This document shows, one piece after another, positions 1-11,946 of a stretch of DNA of 11,946 nt. Position numbers and translations under genes: made by a program. The stretch lies in IMG/VR virus record IMGVR_UViG_2585427728_000004. One strand, 5' to 3'. The notes under the pieces are model-generated. The model ran no database searches. It was given only the letters and a program-made list of their open reading frames with translations, and was not told where the DNA came from. This DNA is from a virus. Lineage: Duplodnaviria > Heunggongvirae > Uroviricota > Caudoviricetes. Every line of letters starts with the position of its first letter. Position 1 is the stretch's first letter.

Positions 1-1368
1 TTACTTCACGGAATATTTTGCCACGGTCGCTTTCGCGCCATGCGCTAATAAAGACAAGTACGTTTCCGTCACTCTTGCAGTAAACAAACTATTGTCTGGC
101 AAATCATCACCAAAGATCGCCTTAATCGCCAGCAATGACTGGACGCGCGCTTTCCCTTCGTCACTACTTTGTACAGCCTTCTGAATAACAGGTAACAGTG
201 GGTCACTGATTTCTATCGGATTTCCCTGTTCATCAACACCACCGACATAACGCATCCAACCCGCGACGCCCAGCGCCAGCAGATCGAACTTGCTGTCATG
301 CGCCAGATGCCAGCGAACAGAATCCAACATCCGCTGTGGCAATTTCTGGCTACCATCCATCGCAATCTGCCAGGTTCGATGACGTAACGCCGGGTTGCTA
401 TAGCGTGCAATTAATCGGTTAGCGTAATCTTGCAAATCAACGCCCTGCACTTTCAACGTCGGCGCTTGTTCCTGCAACATCAAGCCATACGCCGCATAAC
501 GATATTGTTCATCTTCCATACAGTCATTAATGTGCTGATATCCTGCAAGATACCCCAGATACGCCAGGAATGAATGACTGCCGTTGAGCATGCGCAACTT
601 CATCTCTTCATAAGGCAGCACATCGCTAACCAGTTCGGCTCCCGCTTTTTCCCATTCCGGACGTCCGGCAACAAAGTTATCTTCTATTACCCACTGGCGG
701 AAAGGTTCACAGGCAACGCCCGCAGGATCGCCCACACCGGTAAGTTGTTCGATTTTCGCCAGCGTATCCTCTGTCACTGCGGGCACAATACGGTCCACCA
801 TTGTTGATGGGAAAGTCACGTTATCTTCGATCCATTGTGCCAGTTTTACATCAACGGCTTGTGCGTAGGAAGTGACAACGTCACGCATAACATGACCGTT
901 TTCTGGCATGTTGTCACATGACATGACGGTAAATGCGGGAAGTCCTGCCGCTTTACGGCGAGCCAGCGCCTCAACAATCACCCCTGTTGCTGTTTTCGGC
1001 TGGTGGGGATTTTGCACGTCGGCAGCGACCATCGGGTGATCGAGCATTAACTGTCCGGTCGCCGGAGAGTGGAAATACCCTTTTTCGGTGATTGTCAGAG
1101 AGACAATCGCAATTTGCGGTTCACACATCGCAGCCAGCACGGTTTCTAAGCCATCTATTTGTACGTGCAAGGCTTTTTTAACGACGCCAACGACGCGAGC
1201 CGTCCACGCGTCGGCCGACATTTCCGCAACGGTATAAAGATTATCTTGCTGTTGTAAATCGGCAATTTGCTGTTCGCCGCCGATTAAGTTGACCTCATAA
1301 TATCCCCAGTCACTGAAATGTTCCGTAGCAAGAATACAGAGTGCGTATGAGCGCCTGCAGAAGAAGTG
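1..1368 (-). pseudogene. ydfI: Mannitol dehydrogenase family oxidoreductase (UxuB/YdfI-like), 5'-truncated remnant; the ORF-track ORF 1..1221 is its internal-ATG portion
   Basis: The 406-aa ORF aligns with the UxuB family from about residue 85 to the C-terminus ([45 protein letters not shown]). My hand translation of the same frame upstream of the ATG at 1221 continues the homology ([16 protein letters not shown]) up to an in-frame stop at 1369-1371 with no start codon, so the N-terminal Rossmann region is missing. Symbol is inferred from the neighbouring Qin-like prophage. Confidence 0.6.
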
Positions 1369-1930
1369 TTAACACTGTATTTAGAATAATCAGATGCTCC
1401 ACTTCCCGGAGCACCACTGGAACCACCTGAAACAAATGTCATCGAATGGGTATGTGCACCGGCTGAAGCAGCCGTACCGCTAACACTATGGGTATGCGCC
1501 CCGGTGTTATTCGTGGATTTAGTGCCGTAATCAAACGACGATGTGGTTTTCGTACCCAAATCCGTACTGGATGCGCTGGCGCTGTGGGTGTGCGATTTAA
1601 TGCCGTCCTGTTCCTGAGACAATATGGCTCGACCACTGGCGGGCTTGCCCTTAATCGTCCAGCCACGCAAATCAGGGATCACGCCTGACGGATAAGCGGC
1701 AGCAAGTTTCGGGTAGGCAGATTTGTCAAAAGTCTGCCCCTGCATCAGGGCATAACCAGACGGAACGGTATCTGATGGCCACGGGATTGGTGCGCCGACT
1801 GGGTAGCTTTCTGGTGGAAGATTTTTCGAGGTATAAACTTCTGCCCAGTCTTCCTCAAAACCATAGCCATCTCTTGAAGAACGGTAGAACAGACCTCCAT
1901 TTCTGTAATGCGCCTTCATCTGCAGGGTCC
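1338..1930 (-). pseudogene. Side tail fiber protein C-terminal fragment (Stf/gp37-like tip with GAHTHS repeats), lacking its N-terminal part; approximate boundaries
   Basis: ORF 1284..2051 contains [12 protein letters not shown]...[34 protein letters not shown] followed by three GAHTHS repeats typical of lambda Stf/T4 gp37-type fiber tips. The first ~44 codons and last ~17 codons of that ORF are out-of-frame readings of terminase and ydfI DNA respectively. Confidence 0.55.
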
Positions 1931-3339
1931 GGCAACTTCCGACTCCGGTAGCTGGCCGGATCAATTCGCTGGCTCTCCCCGTCGCTGTCACCGCGCAATG
2001 ACTGCGTGATGTTGTAACGATCAATAATCCAGCGTTCGCCACGGCTGCCATAGCCCGTTACCTGAACCACAAAACGGCGATGACGTCCCGCCTGCACATC
2101 CACTGTCGCCACAAGGAAATTAACGCCATCCGGCACACTGCGGGAAGGAACTGGCTCTGCCCGCTGCTCAAGCAATTCACTTTTTCGTTGCTCCATGCTG
2201 GCGCGGGGAAGATAAGGTAATCCCCAGTCGGTATTGATAACCGTCTTGAGTGTCTCTTCACTTCCGGTTGTCTCGTATTCCTGTTCTGCAGTAAGCAGCT
2301 TGTAAACGAGTTGCGAGAGTGTCTGATAAGCAGCTGCCGGACCCTCCATCCAGAATGACGCAATACGTGAACGCCGGGGATCACCATAACGACTGCCATC
2401 TGCATTGATGGATTCACCATCCCGTAACCAGACCCCACGTCCGTTCAGCTCGCGTTTTTGTTCAGGCAAAATCCGTCCTGAACAGGAAGGACACTGAATA
2501 TAAGCCGCCTCACTTGCCAGCACAGGATCGGCAATATCACGGAAACCAGCAACCACATCGCCGCAGGGCTGAAAATACTCACCACAGTGTGGACAGGGCC
2601 AGTACCAGCGACGGCGATCGCCACGGTTATAGAGCGACAGGATCCCCGTGGTTGGTGGAGCCTCATGCGGTGAAGTCCGTCGCCATTTCACATCCTTCAC
2701 ATCCCTGCCGGGGGAACTCTCCACCAGCGTCATACCACTGGACATAAATGTGGTGGTACGTTTTGAGGCAAGAGAGAAGGCATCCCCCTCACCATCAATA
2801 TCTTCCGGAAAACGGTCATAATCCGTCAGCGCCACGCATTTATAATCTGATGAAGACATGATATTGACTGACGGCCAGCCGATTTTCAGGTAGTTGCCAG
2901 CAAGGAATGTTCTGTCATAAACGTTGTTGTCATTTTTGTTCGGACTCAGGCGACTGACCACTTCCGGGCTGACGCGAAACGTTCTGGCGAGTCGTTTTTT
3001 GGAGTGTTCGCGGGCTTTTTCCTCCGTCATCTGAATGATCAGCATATCAGCAGGATCGCAAATCACGTTGTAAATCACCCAGCCGTCAATCAGGCCGATA
3101 GTCTTGCCGGTTCGTGCCGGGCCAACAAATATCACTGCGTCGTATTCACGCGAGGCCAGGCAGTTCATAGGCTCAATAACATACGGTGCCACCAGCGGAT
3201 CCCACGGGACTGAGTTCCCTGCCCCCATGGGCACCCGCATATACTGAGCAACGGCATCAGCAACCCGCATTCGTCTCGGTGCGCGAAGGATATAACCTGA
3301 ATCGGTTCGTGCTGCCTTTGCGGTTTCCTGATTCAGCAT
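1855..3339 (-). CDS. Phage terminase large subunit (lambda GpA family), C-terminally truncated and fused into tail-fiber DNA; probably non-functional
   Basis: 494-aa ORF with Walker-A-like GPARTGKT, the CPHCGE motif and a WIIDRYNI segment matching the lambda gpA nuclease-domain region. Lambda gpA is about 640 aa; homology ends near residue 465 and the frame then runs through tail-fiber sequence to a stop. The start ATG overlaps the upstream stop (TAATG). Confidence 0.75.
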
Positions 3340-5735: not shown

Positions 5736-5948
5736 TCAAAGTGCCACTACATGAACAGCTGCAGGGCCTTTAGGTCCGTTCTCAATACCAAATTCGACTT
5801 CCTGATTCTCAGTTAACGTTTTGAAATCGTTGCTCTGAATAGCTGAGAAATGCACAAACACATCTTTGCTACCATCTTTCGGCGTGATGAAACCAAAACC
5901 TTTTTCAGGGTTAAACCATTTCACTAAACCAGTCATTTTGTTAGACAT
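5736..5948 (-). CDS. cspI: Cold shock protein CspA family (70 aa), CspI-like
   Basis: [70 protein letters not shown] carries the RNP1/RNP2 motifs (KGFGFI, VFVHF) of cold shock proteins; AAGG Shine-Dalgarno and a long AT-rich leader lie upstream. Confidence 0.9.
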
Positions 5949-6311
5949 CATTATTACCTTTTGAAGAAGTTAGCCCTTGGGCAGAATGGTCCGAAAAAAA
6001 ATATCAGAAAGAAAAACCAACAAGGAAATCTCAAGAGGTACAAATAATAAAATTATAACAATGACTGCTTCAGATAATTTTGTAACAAACCAGAACACCA
6101 TTAACGCATGATTAACCAACCATAGCAAGGATTACTTTTGTAAAGAAAAACACACGAATGAAACAATAGCTTTATTTATTAATAAAACGTGTCATTCTGT
6201 CTAATGACCTTTTATCTTACCCTTAAGATTTCAAGGATTTTGACTCATGGAAGAGTCCTTTTTATTTAAATTTCACATTCAGCGCTAAAAATAATCCGAT
6301 TTAATATTAAT

Positions 6312-7650: not shown

Positions 7651-7866
7651 TTACTCTCCTCTCGCAGCCTTACGCCTGTCTTCTTTAATCTTGAAATAAA
7701 GATTTGTCAGATACGTCAGCATGCCAAATACCAGACTACCCAATACACCTATTGCCGCCCACTGTGAGGGCGTGACTTTATCGAGCAACTGTAAAAACCA
7801 GTAGCCAGCACTGCCTGCAGAGGTGCTGTAGGCGATGCCCGTTGTTAACTTATCCATGGATTTCAT
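7651..7866 (-). CDS. essQ: Pinholin, phage 21 S21-like class II holin with dual-start motif (71 aa)
   Basis: [71 protein letters not shown] has two transmembrane segments and a charged C-terminus; GGAGGTGA Shine-Dalgarno upstream. The ORF-track extension to 7950 is read-through. Confidence 0.85.
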
Positions 7867-7954
7867 AGCCTCACCTCCGCAGATAACGGATGGTGTACAC
7901 GGTTTGGTTCGAAGAAGGAAAGAAGTTACATTAGCGTAAGGCCCGAACATCTAT

Positions 7955-7987
7955 TCAAAAAGAAAAACGCCAGCAATTATTCTGGCG
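7955..7987 (-). terminator. Candidate intrinsic terminator between the AraC-family gene and the holin
   Basis: Plus strand aaaaaCGCCAGcaattattCTGGCG; on the minus strand CGCCAG-aauaauug-CUGGCG is followed by UUUUUCUUUUU. Confidence 0.45.
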
Positions 7988-8056
7988 TAGCTAAAAATAT
8001 CGTATAATCTTACACTTCAAAAAATAACTTTATAAAATACCATCACATCATATCTT

Positions 8057-8770
8057 CTAAGAAAATCTTGATAAATATTGGTGCGGAGGCACACCAAAAT
8101 ATCCTCTAAAAACACTTACAAAATATGATGCATTGTCATACCCGCATATTCCCGCCACCTTGCCGACAGTATGGTTACTGTAGATCAATAATCTTTGCGC
8201 CATCATCATTCGTTCTTCAAGAATTAATTTACTAAACGATAATCCTTCGTCTTTTAATTTTCTTTTTAACAAACTCTCGCTCATATATAATCTTGAAGAT
8301 ATATCACAAAGTCTCCATGACGCAGAGATATCCGAGTGAATAATAGCCTTAACTTTACAACCTAAGCTATTAAGACTTCCGAACAAAAAACTTTGCACTA
8401 TTTTCTCTGAAGATAAGACAGCAAGACATGCAAGTGATATTTGATTTCTAACTACATCCACGGTTTTGCTATCACAATTCAAGCATGCAACCAAGTTCTT
8501 TAACAATGAAAAATCTTCACATTCTACTATCAAGTATGACGGATAAAACCTTCTTACAGAAAAAGGTGAGAGTGTGTAGTTTTTAAAGAAATCATTAACT
8601 GTTTTCTCCTCAACATCTACGATCATTAGATGATCTGTATTTGACGAAAAAAGATCTTTTAAATTGTATTCAATGAGGACAGCATTTCCTTTTTTAAACA
8701 AAATATCTTCTTTACCAATTCGGACACCAAACGAGTTCAACACCAAAATGATAGAACATATGTATGGCAT
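8057..8770 (-). CDS. AraC/XylS-family transcriptional regulator (AppY/Rns-like size class, 237 aa from the ATG at 8770)
   Basis: C-terminal double HTH typical of AraC family (LLKRKLKDEGLSFSKLILEERMMMAQRLL...VGKVAGICGYDNASYFVSVFRGYFGVPPHQY). AGGTGG Shine-Dalgarno 5 nt before the ATG at 8770; the ORF-track start at 8779 is GTG. The gene and its ~400-bp upstream region are visibly AT-rich. Confidence 0.85.
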   Translation of the reverse strand: MPYICSIILVLNSFGVRIGKEDILFKKGNAVLIEYNLKDLFSSNTDHLMIVDVEEKTVNDFFKNYTLSPFSVRRFYPSYLIVECEDFSLLKNLVACLNCDSKTVDVVRNQISLACLAVLSSEKIVQSFLFGSLNSLGCKVKAIIHSDISASWRLCDISSRLYMSESLLKRKLKDEGLSFSKLILEERMMMAQRLLIYSNHTVGKVAGICGYDNASYFVSVFRGYFGVPPHQYLSRFS

Positions 8771-9176
8771 ATTATCCACCTGATATCATTGGGGTTACAC
8801 CAGGTAAGTATAGGTGGAAAATCAATATTCGCCAGTTCAACAATAAGGAAAATCTCATTGCATCACAACTATAAAACCATGTGTTTAACTCACAAAAAAC
8901 AAATCATTAAACTAATCTGTTATATTATAATAGCTGCGTGCAATAATAATATTATATGCTCTTAATATTCACTTGAAATATCTTCATATAAAAACAGATT
9001 GAATAAAATCTTTTGGGGCTGGTATGTTTACCAACATTAAATTGCATCTCAATGTTTTCTTTAGCGTGAACAGGATTTTTATAAAAACTGACACTATGAG
9101 CATCATAGCGTAGTTTTTACGATTGTAAATATCCTGCATACAGGAACTCATCACTTTCAGATGATATCGCATACAG
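8771..9176 (-). promoter_or_regulatory. AT-rich leader/promoter region of the AraC-family gene; candidate nucleoid-protein (H-NS-type) silencing target
   Basis: About 400 bp of very AT-rich non-coding DNA between two minus-strand genes. The only ORF here (8984..9172) is low-complexity with no ribosome-binding site. No specific promoter hexamers assigned. Confidence 0.3.
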
Positions 9177-10136
9177 TTAATTCACCATCAGTCTTAGAGC
9201 CAGTTCTTCCGGATAGGGATCGAAGTAGTTCTGTGTAAGCAAGTAATCATTAGGATACTCACCCAGATAATGCTTCAGCAGAGTCAACGGCGCAAGAAGA
9301 GGCAATGTGCCAAAGCGATAGTTAAGTATAACCTCGCTCAACTCTTTACGCTGGCGTGTACTTAAGTAATTACTAAAATACCCCTGTATATGCATCAGCA
9401 CATTCGTGTGATTTTTACGTGATGCTGGTTTTCTGAGAATCGCCATCAGATTATCACGATACACCTCAAAGTATGATTCAAGGTCCGCCCACTCGTGTAT
9501 TGCAGCCACAAATGGTCCCATATCTTTATAGCCTGCCTGGCTATGCGCCAACAACTGAAGCTTATAACGACTATGAAAAGCTAATAACTCTCTTCTTGAT
9601 AATTTCTCCTTGTAAAGGTGATTGAGCTCATGCAAAGCAAAAACTCTTTCAATAAAATTCTCACGAAGCACTGGATCATGTAATCGCCCATCCTCTTCAA
9701 CCGGTAGCCAGGAAAACTTTTCCATCAAAGTGCTCGTAAATAGTCCCACTCCATCTTTACGACCTCGATTACCATTTTCATCATAGACACGCACGCGCTC
9801 CATGCCACAGCTGGGAGATTTAGCACAAACCACAAACCCCGATACATCCTTTAATTTGTCCATATAAGAACGACTAAACTCTGTCATTCTCTCTGTCACA
9901 TCCTCATTCTGGTCGTGGCTGAAACACATCCGTATATTTCCTTGCTTCGAGCGCACAAGTCGTAGAGCAGGACGCGGAACTGGCAGCCCTATAGCCATTT
10001 CCGGACATACTGGTCTGAATGTTACCCATTCCACTAATTTGTCCATTAAAAAGTCATCTCTTTTGTGACCACCATCAAAACGAACAGCAGAACCGCCCAA
10101 ACAACCGCTGATCCCAATCACAGGTTTTTTTATCAT
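9177..10136 (-). CDS. DUF523/DUF1722 fusion protein (TudS-like putative [4Fe-4S] thionucleobase desulfidase with YbgA-like domain)
   Basis: N-terminal MIKKPVIGISGCLGGSAVRFDGGHKRD with three spaced cysteines (GISGC, PVCPE, SPSCG) as in DUF523/TudS; the C-terminal half resembles DUF1722 (YbgA). Strong GGGGGAGGAA Shine-Dalgarno 4 nt upstream of the ATG. Confidence 0.8.
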   Translation of the reverse strand: MIKKPVIGISGCLGGSAVRFDGGHKRDDFLMDKLVEWVTFRPVCPEMAIGLPVPRPALRLVRSKQGNIRMCFSHDQNEDVTERMTEFSRSYMDKLKDVSGFVVCAKSPSCGMERVRVYDENGNRGRKDGVGLFTSTLMEKFSWLPVEEDGRLHDPVLRENFIERVFALHELNHLYKEKLSRRELLAFHSRYKLQLLAHSQAGYKDMGPFVAAIHEWADLESYFEVYRDNLMAILRKPASRKNHTNVLMHIQGYFSNYLSTRQRKELSEVILNYRFGTLPLLAPLTLLKHYLGEYPNDYLLTQNYFDPYPEELALRLMVN

Positions 10137-10328: not shown

Positions 10329-10853
10329 ATGAAGTTATGGCCTGTGTTGACTGGCATTGCACTCTCTTTCACTCTTATAGCATGTAAGGCCCCGACACCA
10401 CCTAAAGGTGTGCAGCCGATTACAAATTTTGACGCCAACCGCTACCTCGGAAAATGGTATGAAATAGCTCGCCTCGAGAACTGGTTCGAACGTGGTCTGG
10501 AACAGGTCAGCGCTACTTATGAAAAACGGAACGACGGAGGGATTCGCGTACTTAACCGTGGATACGATCCAACGAAAAACAAATGGAGCGAGAGCGAAGG
10601 TAAAGCATACTTTACTGGAGATACTAAAACTGCAGCGTTGAAAGTTTCGTTTTTTGGCCCCTTCTATGGTGGCTATAATGTAATCAAACTGGATGATGAG
10701 TATAAGTATGCTCTTGTCAGTGGTCCGAACAGAGAATACCTATGGATTCTGGCAAGGACCCAAACTATTCCAGATAATGTAAAAGCAGACTATGTGCGTA
10801 CCGCTCAAAAGTTGGGATTCAATGTCAATGAACTATTATGGGTTAAACAATAA
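10329..10853 (+). CDS. Bacterial lipocalin Blc-like outer-membrane lipoprotein (174 aa)
   Basis: Signal peptide with LIAC lipobox (MKLWPVLTGIALSFTLIAC), then Blc motifs NFDANRYLGKWYEIARLENWFERGLEQVSATY and GKAYFTGDTKTAALKVSFFGPFYGGYNVIKLD...YLWILARTQ. AGGA Shine-Dalgarno upstream. Only plus-strand gene in the window. Confidence 0.85.
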   Translation: MKLWPVLTGIALSFTLIACKAPTPPKGVQPITNFDANRYLGKWYEIARLENWFERGLEQVSATYEKRNDGGIRVLNRGYDPTKNKWSESEGKAYFTGDTKTAALKVSFFGPFYGGYNVIKLDDEYKYALVSGPNREYLWILARTQTIPDNVKADYVRTAQKLGFNVNELLWVKQ

Positions 10854-10881
10854 AATCCCCACCCGAAATGATACTTATTAG

Positions 10882-10908
10882 AAAAAAACCAGCCTTTGGG
10901 GAGGCTGG
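10882..10908 (-). terminator. Intrinsic terminator ~100 nt downstream of the Q gene (tR'-like candidate)
   Basis: Plus strand gaaaaaaaCCAGCCTttggggAGGCTGG; on the minus strand a 7-bp GC-rich stem with 6-nt loop is followed by UUUUUUUU. No T-run follows on the plus strand, so it is unidirectional. Confidence 0.5.
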
Positions 10909-11008
10909 CTAAATCAGGAAACAAGCTGTTATATGATAATAACTACGTTGCGATTCCAACATTTAAAATGTTAGACTAATGAAAATCAGACAGCAACTTT
11001 TCCTTTAA

Positions 11009-11386
11009 TTATTTCGAACAATCAGCATCCATCTCCAATCGGAGATCCAACACCATCAGCATGCCCTCCACTACGCCCTCAGCTTTCTGGAGCATCCTGC
11101 CAACCCAACAATCAGATCGCCCATGCTTACGTGCAAGCGCCATAAAAGTCATGCCGCCGACATAATAGTCCACCAATAAATCATGTAAATCGCTGTTGTT
11201 TTTTTTCAGGCGAGCCATACATTCACAAATGATCATCGCGTCATCGTCACAGCATTGCGGACGAGATCTTACTTTTGAAGGAATTAATCCCTTAAAACCG
11301 GCGGCAATGGACGACCAGGTCACATCTTCATGATTATTAGCCGCCCATGCCCCCCAACGCTCAAGAACCATCTGAATATCACGCAT
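11009..11386 (-). CDS. Late-gene antitermination protein Q (short QuuD/phage-82-type, ~125 aa)
   Basis: [24 protein letters not shown]...[18 protein letters not shown]... matches the short Q antiterminator family with its cysteine cluster; GGAG Shine-Dalgarno 9 nt before the ATG at 11386. The ORF-track start at 11401 is TTG. Confidence 0.75.
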
Positions 11387-11403: not shown

Positions 11404-11946
11404 TTAGGCCAGCACACCAATTGCCAGCGCGCGATCGATAAATCGAAAAATCAGCTCCAGTTGGGAGCCATACTTCTCTTCAAATGCCACGGTATCCGTA
11501 TGCAACTCGTCGTGATGCTTTCTGCACAAAGGCAAAACAAAGAGATCATGTGCTTTGGTTCCCATTCCGCCCTGCCCGTGACCAATCAGATGATGCGGAT
11601 CGTCGGCTGGCATACCATATCGGTGAATAACGGTTTCGCTGTGATGATAATCGCCGTGTGGCCACTGGCAGGATTTAATATGGCGCAACAGCCAGTCAGA
11701 CAATGCACCAGCACCACCAGCAGCACGAATTACCCGTGCGTTACTGAAAAACGGCAGCAATGTTTTGTCTTCCACCAGCGGCTGGCGAACGGCAGGAACG
11801 ACCCCGGACGGCAGATTACGCATGCTTTTCGGTTCCGGCTCCACCAGTACCCGGGTATTGTGGAATACCGGCATGGATTCACGGCCCGGCTTAACGACCA
11901 CCAGCCCGAGTTCCGGTACCAGAACAGGTCGAAGTAATACCCGCAC
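11404..11946 (-). CDS. DUF968-family prophage protein (YdfU-like), C-terminal ~180 aa; gene continues beyond the window end
   Basis: ORF runs off the window edge; contains the HNH/zinc-like motif [28 protein letters not shown] and sits immediately upstream of Q as ydfU does in Qin. Confidence 0.6.

Follow-up and report, generated by a model that had tools for sequence, protein, structure and literature searches.

A terminator of the Stx-phage tR' type follows the Q gene of a prophage, and the probable late promoter lies beyond two cargo genes

The window, i.e. the whole stretch of 11,946 nucleotides taken from the virus record IMGVR_UViG_2585427728_000004, contains on its minus strand a DUF968 gene (11946..11404) followed by the gene of a Q antiterminator of 125 aa (11009..11386; ATG at 11386, stop codon 11011..11009). 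A gap of 155 nt lies between Q and a convergent, plus-strand lipocalin gene of the blc type (10329..10853; PF08212, E 7.5e-43), which is annotated as Lipocalin Blc in related phages. Further downstream in the direction of Q, a ybgA-like gene with 2-thiouracil desulfurase and DUF1722 domains (9177..10136) and a gene for an AraC-family regulator (8057..8779) are located, both on the minus strand. The lysis cassette, also on this strand, begins with a gene for a holin of the phage 21 S type (7651..7950; PF04971, E 6e-34), which is followed by genes for DUF1327, lysozyme and Rz. Still on the minus strand, the segment 5690..6095 gave a match to the Rfam cspA thermoregulator (RF01766, 111 bits, E 2.8e-28). 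It stands upstream of an ORF of 71 aa (5736..5951), which is a cold-shock gene in the prophage late region, as in Qin.

The module composed of Q, blc, ybgA and the AraC-like gene is also carried by isolated phages, namely IdasGreatGrand and members of the Lambda_2E9/1H12 group. The Q-proximal 241 nt were found in 1115 of 5426 complete E. coli genomes, among them BL21, HS and E. coli B. BL21 and REL606 have retained Q, the terminator described below and blc but have no promoter block at position 9129 (see below); in BL21, this block was lost because the ybgA-like gene is truncated by IS3. In E. coli HS, the module is intact. Insertion sequences (IS256-type, IS3 and IS1) reside at several points of the module in relatives, namely at about window position 10954 (locus L041), just past the Q stop codon (L113), within ybgA (L114, BL21) and after the promoter block (L124). 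We had considered L041 and L113 as recombinants marking module boundaries at the gap; this was rejected, as the apparent breaks are IS insertions. A contig of 2.1 kb that carries the label of a Candidatus Nanosynbacter MAG (L096, JARKOR010000135.1) encodes a Q protein 98% identical to that of the window and most likely entered that bin as contamination from E. coli.

The Q protein matched PF06530 with an E-value of 6.9e-51 and the solved Q21 structure 6p18 with an E-value of 5e-9. PF06530 comprises the Q21 family; Q proteins fall into three families that are unrelated to each other (PMC9388147). Within this family the protein belongs to the QuuD/933W subfamily, as it is approximately 80-86% identical to the Q proteins of Stx phages and DLP12. 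The Q protein of the 933W-type Stx phages (144 aa) shares about 80% identity with it across residues 1-120, while the respective values for the Q proteins of DLP12 and the viable phage ev243 are 84-86%. A stretch at about residues 84-95 (window 11138..11103) is diverged. There, the window-type and the Lambda_2E9 Q proteins read RSDCW(V/I)GRMLQK, and all relatives compared, which stem from seven genera, read CSDG(H/Y/T)IGK(K/R)LQK. By-eye alignment with sigma region 4.2 suggests that this stretch is the recognition helix. Since the putative helix is diverged, the DNA specificity of the window-type Q may possibly be altered in comparison to its relatives.

An earlier note on this DNA had described a strong unidirectional terminator on the minus strand roughly 100 nt past the Q stop codon, and this was confirmed. 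The intrinsic terminator (10882..10910, minus strand) consists of a hairpin at 10910..10889, which begins 99 nt past the Q stop codon, and a T7 run at 10888..10882; its sequence is AGCCAGCCU-CCCCAA-AGGCUGGUU. The structural details given in the note had to be corrected, as the stem is not a 7-bp GC stem followed by U8 but comprises nine pairs (five G-C, three A-U and one G-U) with the core CCAGCC/GGCUGG and a loop of 6 nt. The run is U7 in the window and U8 in the Lambda_2E9 lineage; the first two T of the window run are able to pair. With a minimum free energy of -14.9 kcal/mol (z -4.2), the structure was not equalled in stability by any of 200 shuffled sequences, and it ranks first among the terminator-like sites of the window scan. 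When both strands were searched for hairpins followed by at least six T, it was the sole window site with a dG of -12 or lower; 40 shuffled versions contained 0.03 such sites on average, and none of these reached -14. On the plus strand the hairpin also folds (-13.3) but is followed by CTAAATC instead of a T-run, which makes the terminator unidirectional. The terminator itself is ordinary. As part of a whole explanation that includes a late promoter at position 9129, we predict with moderate confidence that the element is a genuine Rho-independent terminator forming the 3' end of the Q transcription unit.

The segment 10882..10931 (minus strand) is homologous to the 3' end of the pR' leader of 933W-type phages, which comprises the 3' part of StxS and tR'. 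Local alignment of window positions 10931..10882 with positions 2161..2214 of locus L004, a 933W-type locus, yielded a score of 43, while shuffled sequences scored 17.7 +/- 2.7 with a maximum of 34. The terminator located 3' of Q reads GCCAGCCTCCCCCAGTGGCTGGCTTTTTT in the 933W-type Stx phages and GCCAGCCTCCCCAAAGGCTGGTTTTTTT in the window. In these phages, Term-seq placed the 3' end of the pR' transcript at tR', and StxS, an Hfq-binding sRNA, represents the 3' 74 nt of this transcript (PMC7547250). Because the Stx-phage terminator is a mapped tR' and the window aligns with it, the window terminator is a homolog of a genuine tR'; judged from this alignment, it descends from the tR'/StxS-type terminator of 933W-like lambdoid phages. 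The homology to StxS is confined to the 3' 50 nt, i.e. the terminator and the preceding TAACAGC, and alignment with the window did not recover the GUAUU processing context of 933W.

This kinship raises an alternative that we consider unlikely, namely that gap and terminator form a stand-alone gene for a StxS-related sRNA. A weak constitutive promoter, either the hexamers TTGCTG and TAACAT (10968..10996, see below) or TATCAT at 10938, would produce an RNA of 47-82 nt, which would act in trans and independently of Q. In favor of such a gene are the homology of the 3' 50 nt to an Hfq-binding sRNA that itself derives from the pR' leader (PMC7547250) and the folding of the implied 82-nt RNA (10961..10880) as a 5' hairpin plus the terminator (dG -24, z -3.75). 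Moreover, no other stretch of the region is as well conserved as core and terminator (97.3% identity to Lambda_2E9), and the element persists in BL21, whose downstream prophage is truncated. However, there is no promoter with statistical support, and over 75 nt, an identity of 97% does not significantly exceed that of the flanking genes (94-95%). The StxS/DsrA-type seed UGUAACGAA, which activates rpoS, is not conserved, as the window reads CGCAACGUA. In interaction predictions of the gap RNA with rpoS, the activation site was not selected, and the duplex energy was no better than that of shuffles (P 0.24). Nor did a search of the region against Rfam give any match at the gathering thresholds; under relaxed settings, the sole match with an E-value below 0.01 reached 28.6 bits against a cutoff of 50 and covered essentially the terminator only. 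If the sRNA existed, non-Stx prophages in about one fifth of the sequenced E. coli, including BL21 and HS, would carry a relative of StxS, and a former pR' leader, no longer coupled to late transcription, would have been retained for a role that is directed at the host and is not the activation of rpoS.

Immediately upstream of the terminator hairpin resides the first copy of a direct repeat of 39 nt (10911..10949, minus strand; ACGTAGTTATTATCATATAACAGCTTGTTTCCTGATTT), which contains the -10-like sequence TATCAT at 10938..10933. The second copy (8901..8940, minus strand) is followed by T6 but only by a weak A/U hairpin. The alignment of both copies scored 41 compared to 14.8 +/- 2.3 for shuffles and gave the consensus ACG(T/C)AG(T/C)TATTAT(C/A)ATATAACAG..GTTT..TGATTT. 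The copies bracket the terminator, blc, the ybgA-like gene and the promoter block at 9129, and the second one is absent from the Lambda_2E9 lineage. The repeat may mark the recombination that built the module.

For the identification of the late promoter, we made use of the pR' of the 933W-type phages, whose start was mapped by dRNA-seq 258 nt before the 3' end at tR', with an RNase E site (GU/AUU) at +173 (PMC7547250). Applied to L004, both measures put the pR' start at 1956-1958, which is 21-23 nt past the Q stop codon. This position lies inside a conserved block, in which TTTACG is followed after 16 nt by TATCAT (1945..1950) and after another 7 nt by the start. In the early leader of L004 (about 1980..2006, +25..+50), we observed a hairpin with a T7 run (ACCCGCCGATGCGCGGGTTTTTTT), which is homologous to the terminator after the DLP12 block; the 3' end that has been published, however, is located at +258.

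Relatives of Q with 66-86% identity were collected, one genome per species. Their family block is composed of TTTACG-(TA/AT)-CGTAAAA, a 16-nt spacer between the -35 and -10 regions (about 7 nt of it after the 15-mer), TAnnnT, then G-(A/T)-TAAGAGTGG, and finally a hairpin with T-run. It is present in E. coli, Shigella, Trabulsiella, Citrobacter, Pantoea, Providencia and Xenorhabdus. The 15-mer TTTACG-WW-CGTAAAA was exact in all 21 block-bearing loci, mostly within about 150 nt of the Q stop codon; it was not found in C. braakii and in five DLP12-like loci, where the retrieved flanking sequence stops within the inserted porin gene or shortly behind it. The element overlapping the -35 region is a perfect palindrome with the center TA or AT (TTTACGTACGTAAA or TTTACGATCGTAAA), the symmetry of which is kept in the loci L004, L092-L111 and L112. 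Compared to the direct-repeat QBE of Q21, the palindrome hints at a different binding mode in the QuuD/933W branch. The block provides a searchable pR' signature for this Q subfamily (TTTACG-WW-CGTAAAA, 16-nt spacer, TAnnnT), by which late promoters can be placed in prophages.

An nhmmer profile and a matrix of 40 columns were built from 19 family blocks, none of which came from the window or its close relatives. On the window, nhmmer returned a sole match at 9129..9092 (E 8.6e-4). The matrix gave +23.9 bits for 9129..9090 (minus strand) and +0.3 for the runner-up in the window; in the Q-proximal gap, no site exceeded -14.7. A pattern search of the window likewise revealed the near-palindrome TTTACAATCGTAAAA at 9129..9115, which deviates from the family 15-mer by one mismatch (G to A). 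This homolog of the pR' block, with a -35 region TTTACA (9129..9124), a 16-nt spacer, a -10 region TATGAT (9107..9102) and a predicted start at about A9095, has kept the family spacing and the invariant positions of TAnnnT and the subsequent TGnT...TG and lies downstream of Q and upstream of the lysis genes. In the tool scan it was among the three best sigma-70-like sites (10/12), and the generic sigma-70 matrix placed it sixth. A comparison of the window with Lambda_2E9 showed 47% identity for the spacer preceding the block and 49% for the leader that follows, but agreement at 26 of the 28 positions from -35 to -10. The block thus stands out as an island of conservation, since the surrounding spacer shares about 48% identity among relatives. 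Based on these sequence comparisons, we conclude that the Q-dependent late promoter/qut most likely resides at 9129..9090 and not in the gap, and regard this as fairly probable.

Some properties of the 9129 block deviate from those of the family. It reads TTTACA, while all 21 other block-bearing loci read TTTACG. This variant could reflect co-variation with the diverged Q or could be a sign that the window-type Q binds elsewhere. The diverged Q helix coincides with this G-to-A change of the lineage. In all E. coli-type viral contigs, the window-type block and Q are accompanied by the same Q-blc-ybgA module, so that the gene context cannot separate the two candidate Q sites. The initially transcribed region of the 9129 block is diverged, without a hairpin/T-run within 50 nt, and the hairpin/T-run that the family has within about 50-260 nt of the start was not seen in the 9129 leader. 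Comparison of the leader 9095..8900 with the 933W leader gave no significant extended homology but only short collinear words. Between 9095 and 8097 no good terminator was detected, just a weak A/U hairpin with T6 at about 8930..8894 (dG -6). The first good one downstream of the block is an intrinsic terminator at 7967..7988 (minus strand; dG -11.3) just upstream of the holin gene, so that the AraC-like gene would lie between the probable pR' and its terminator. This terminator is unchanged in relatives, also where the holin is a different one. A promoter-like site on the minus strand (8895..8868; TTGTGA, 16-nt spacer, TATAGT), the fifth-best sigma-70-like one in the window, precedes the AraC-like gene by about 90 nt and is probably the promoter of this gene itself.

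The earlier note had located a pR'/qut in the interval 10920..11008 on account of the hexamers TTGCTG (10996..10991) and TAACAT (10973..10968) on the minus strand, which are separated by 17 nt and imply a start at about 10961. If this were correct, the hairpin would be the corresponding tR', a constitutive leader of 82 nt would be made, and the Q-modified polymerase would read blc (antisense), the ybgA-like gene, the AraC-like gene and the lysis genes. The hexamers do exist, and a sigma-70 matrix derived from textbook hexamer frequencies gave them the highest score of all sigma-70-like pairs in the gap (8.7 bits). They only rank 38th in the window, though, fall below the 9-of-12 threshold of the tool scan and are of chance quality, since about 0.2 sites this good are expected per single-strand interval of 129 nt. 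They are also poorly conserved: the hexamer stretch (11008..10955) is the least conserved part of the gap, with 87% identity to Lambda_2E9 as compared to 93.9% for Q, 97.3% for core plus terminator and 95.2% for blc. In Lambda_2E9, whose Q helix is unchanged, TAACAT is replaced by TAATGT (two substitutions), and three of the 17 spacer positions differ. An A/T-rich dyad on the minus strand (10971..10957; AACATTT-T-AAATGTT) overlaps the proposed -10 region TAACAT; it is probably not a conserved operator because it is broken in the Lambda_2E9 lineage (AATGTTTCAAATGTT).

Several points nevertheless speak for a late promoter in the gap. The terminator is homologous to a true tR', and phages of the Q21 family normally make very short transcripts from pR', such as the one of about 48 nt in a Q21-type stx2c phage. 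The diverged Q helix always travels with the gap, which makes a lineage-specific QBE conceivable. Finally, the -10-like sequences TATTAT and TATCAT at +21..+29 of the implied transcript could serve as a sigma-dependent pause element, a position that is further downstream than the pause elements of lambda, 21 or 82. On the other hand, the gap does not resemble the subfamily block (best site -14.7 bits, P 0.13 against gap shuffles; no nhmmer match), while a unique and strongly conserved block of the family type exists at 9129, and DLP12 and ev243 (see below) illustrate that adjacency of Q and pR' is not obligatory. Thus, the placement of pR'/qut in the gap is unsupported, and we rate a functional late promoter there as improbable.

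It is likewise improbable that the gap represents a decayed miniature pR'-tR' cassette, non-functional for Q loading. Its leader would have been deleted between ATAAGAG (+1) and GTAACAG (+205 in 933W), and the remainder, in which GTTGGA and TATCAT are 16 nt apart and ATAACAG follows, would have been joined at a distance of 17 nt from the hairpin. An ungapped register does put AATCG.AA and TAT.AT at the spacing of the 9129 block, TATCAT plus ATAA.AG matches the -10/start region of 933W and the terminator-side homology starts exactly at TAACAGC, but the resemblance, noticed after the sequences had been seen, was not significant (-18.1 bits, rank 44 of 23812; best gap site P 0.13), and nhmmer returned nothing there. 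A degenerate pR' copy in the TATCAT register, suggestive by eye, was rejected on the basis of the matrix result.

With the terminator after Q and a late promoter at 9129, we infer the following course of events. Unmodified RNA polymerase leaving Q would encounter the 9-bp hairpin and be released at the U7 tract around 10882. By this means, read-through from the early-right operon as well as any weak start in the gap would be stopped and kept from running antisense into the convergent blc gene. Such an insulating role would apply to unmodified polymerase only; an N-type antiterminated polymerase, if the phage has such a system, which is not in the window, would ignore the terminator. In this prophage lineage the terminator would no longer be paired with a late promoter. 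The latter, together with the site of Q loading, would lie at 9129..9090 (TTTACA-ATCGTAAAA, 16-nt spacer, TATGAT, start near 9095), and transcripts from 9095 would cross the AraC-like gene and stop at 7988..7967 before the holin gene, unless Q had been loaded.

As the block at 9129 lies past blc and the ybgA-like gene, these two genes are most likely outside the late unit, and only the AraC-like gene would be downstream of the probable pR'. The assumption that the cargo module belongs to the late transcription unit may therefore be correct for the AraC-like gene, but most likely does not apply to the other two. In the QuuD/933W branch of the Q21-family phages, inserted cargo genes can apparently separate the late promoter from Q. 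For this reason, a co-induction of cargo with the late operon, as it takes place with stx, cannot be read from a position after Q.

The closest counterpart of the terminator is the tR'/StxS of the 933W-type Stx phages (Sakai Sp5 and Sp15; Sy, Lan and Tree 2020, PMC7547250), with which it shares the hairpin core GCCAGCCTCCCC...GGCTGG, the T-run and the preceding TAACAGC. In both cases the terminator follows soon downstream of a Q gene of the same subfamily. In the Stx phages, however, it closes a transcript of 258 nt that starts from a pR' block beside Q, whereas in the window this block is absent upstream and located 1.9 kb downstream.

Regarding the position of the late promoter, the window resembles DLP12 and ev243, in which a reverse cargo gene likewise lies between Q and the pR' block upstream of the lysis cassette. 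In DLP12 of K-12, quuD is followed by nmpC (reverse, with IS5), and the family block together with its hairpin/T-run precedes essD by about 200 nt; control of the lysis operon by the Q-type antiterminator has been reported for DLP12 (PMC7918800, citing Rueggeberg et al. 2013). In the viable phage ev243, Q (68..451) is followed by a reverse porin gene (640..1674), and the block (2093) stands ahead of the holin gene (2312). These precedents, each with a reverse porin gene in between, invalidate for the QuuD/933W branch the premise that pR' sits directly after Q. There are also differences, since DLP12 is devoid of a clean terminator in the direction of Q right after quuD, while the window has one. 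Furthermore, the pR' block of DLP12 has retained the family leader and an immediate hairpin/T-run, whereas in the window the AraC-like gene precedes the next good terminator. In the comparison with the quuD region, which the earlier note had recommended, the gap and the Q-proximal region of DLP12 only shared the 9-mer ATATAACAG, which is not significant.

Phage 21 possesses a Q protein of the same family (PF06530) and a late region in which the promoter pR'21, the Q site (QBE), SDPE and a nearby terminator are arranged together; the terminated transcript of a Q21-type phage is about 48 nt long. The QBE of Q21 has been described as two tandem direct subsites of 8 bp (Yin et al. 2019, bioRxiv 10.1101/651190). 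In the sequence of a Q21-type phage, we read it as the direct 8-bp repeats GAGCAAAT and GAGCAACA in the promoter spacer, an assignment of our own. The QuuD/933W subfamily has a palindrome overlapping the -35 region in place of these direct repeats. Neither motif is found in the gap.

Late control in lambda is based on a constitutive promoter, a short terminated leader and Q-dependent read-through. The lambda system pR'/6S RNA/tR' (PMC9388147) and the arrangement proposed here follow the same concept. The Q protein of lambda, though, belongs to the unrelated family PF03589, and its pR' is found directly after Q, whereas the best pR' candidate of the window is two cargo genes away.
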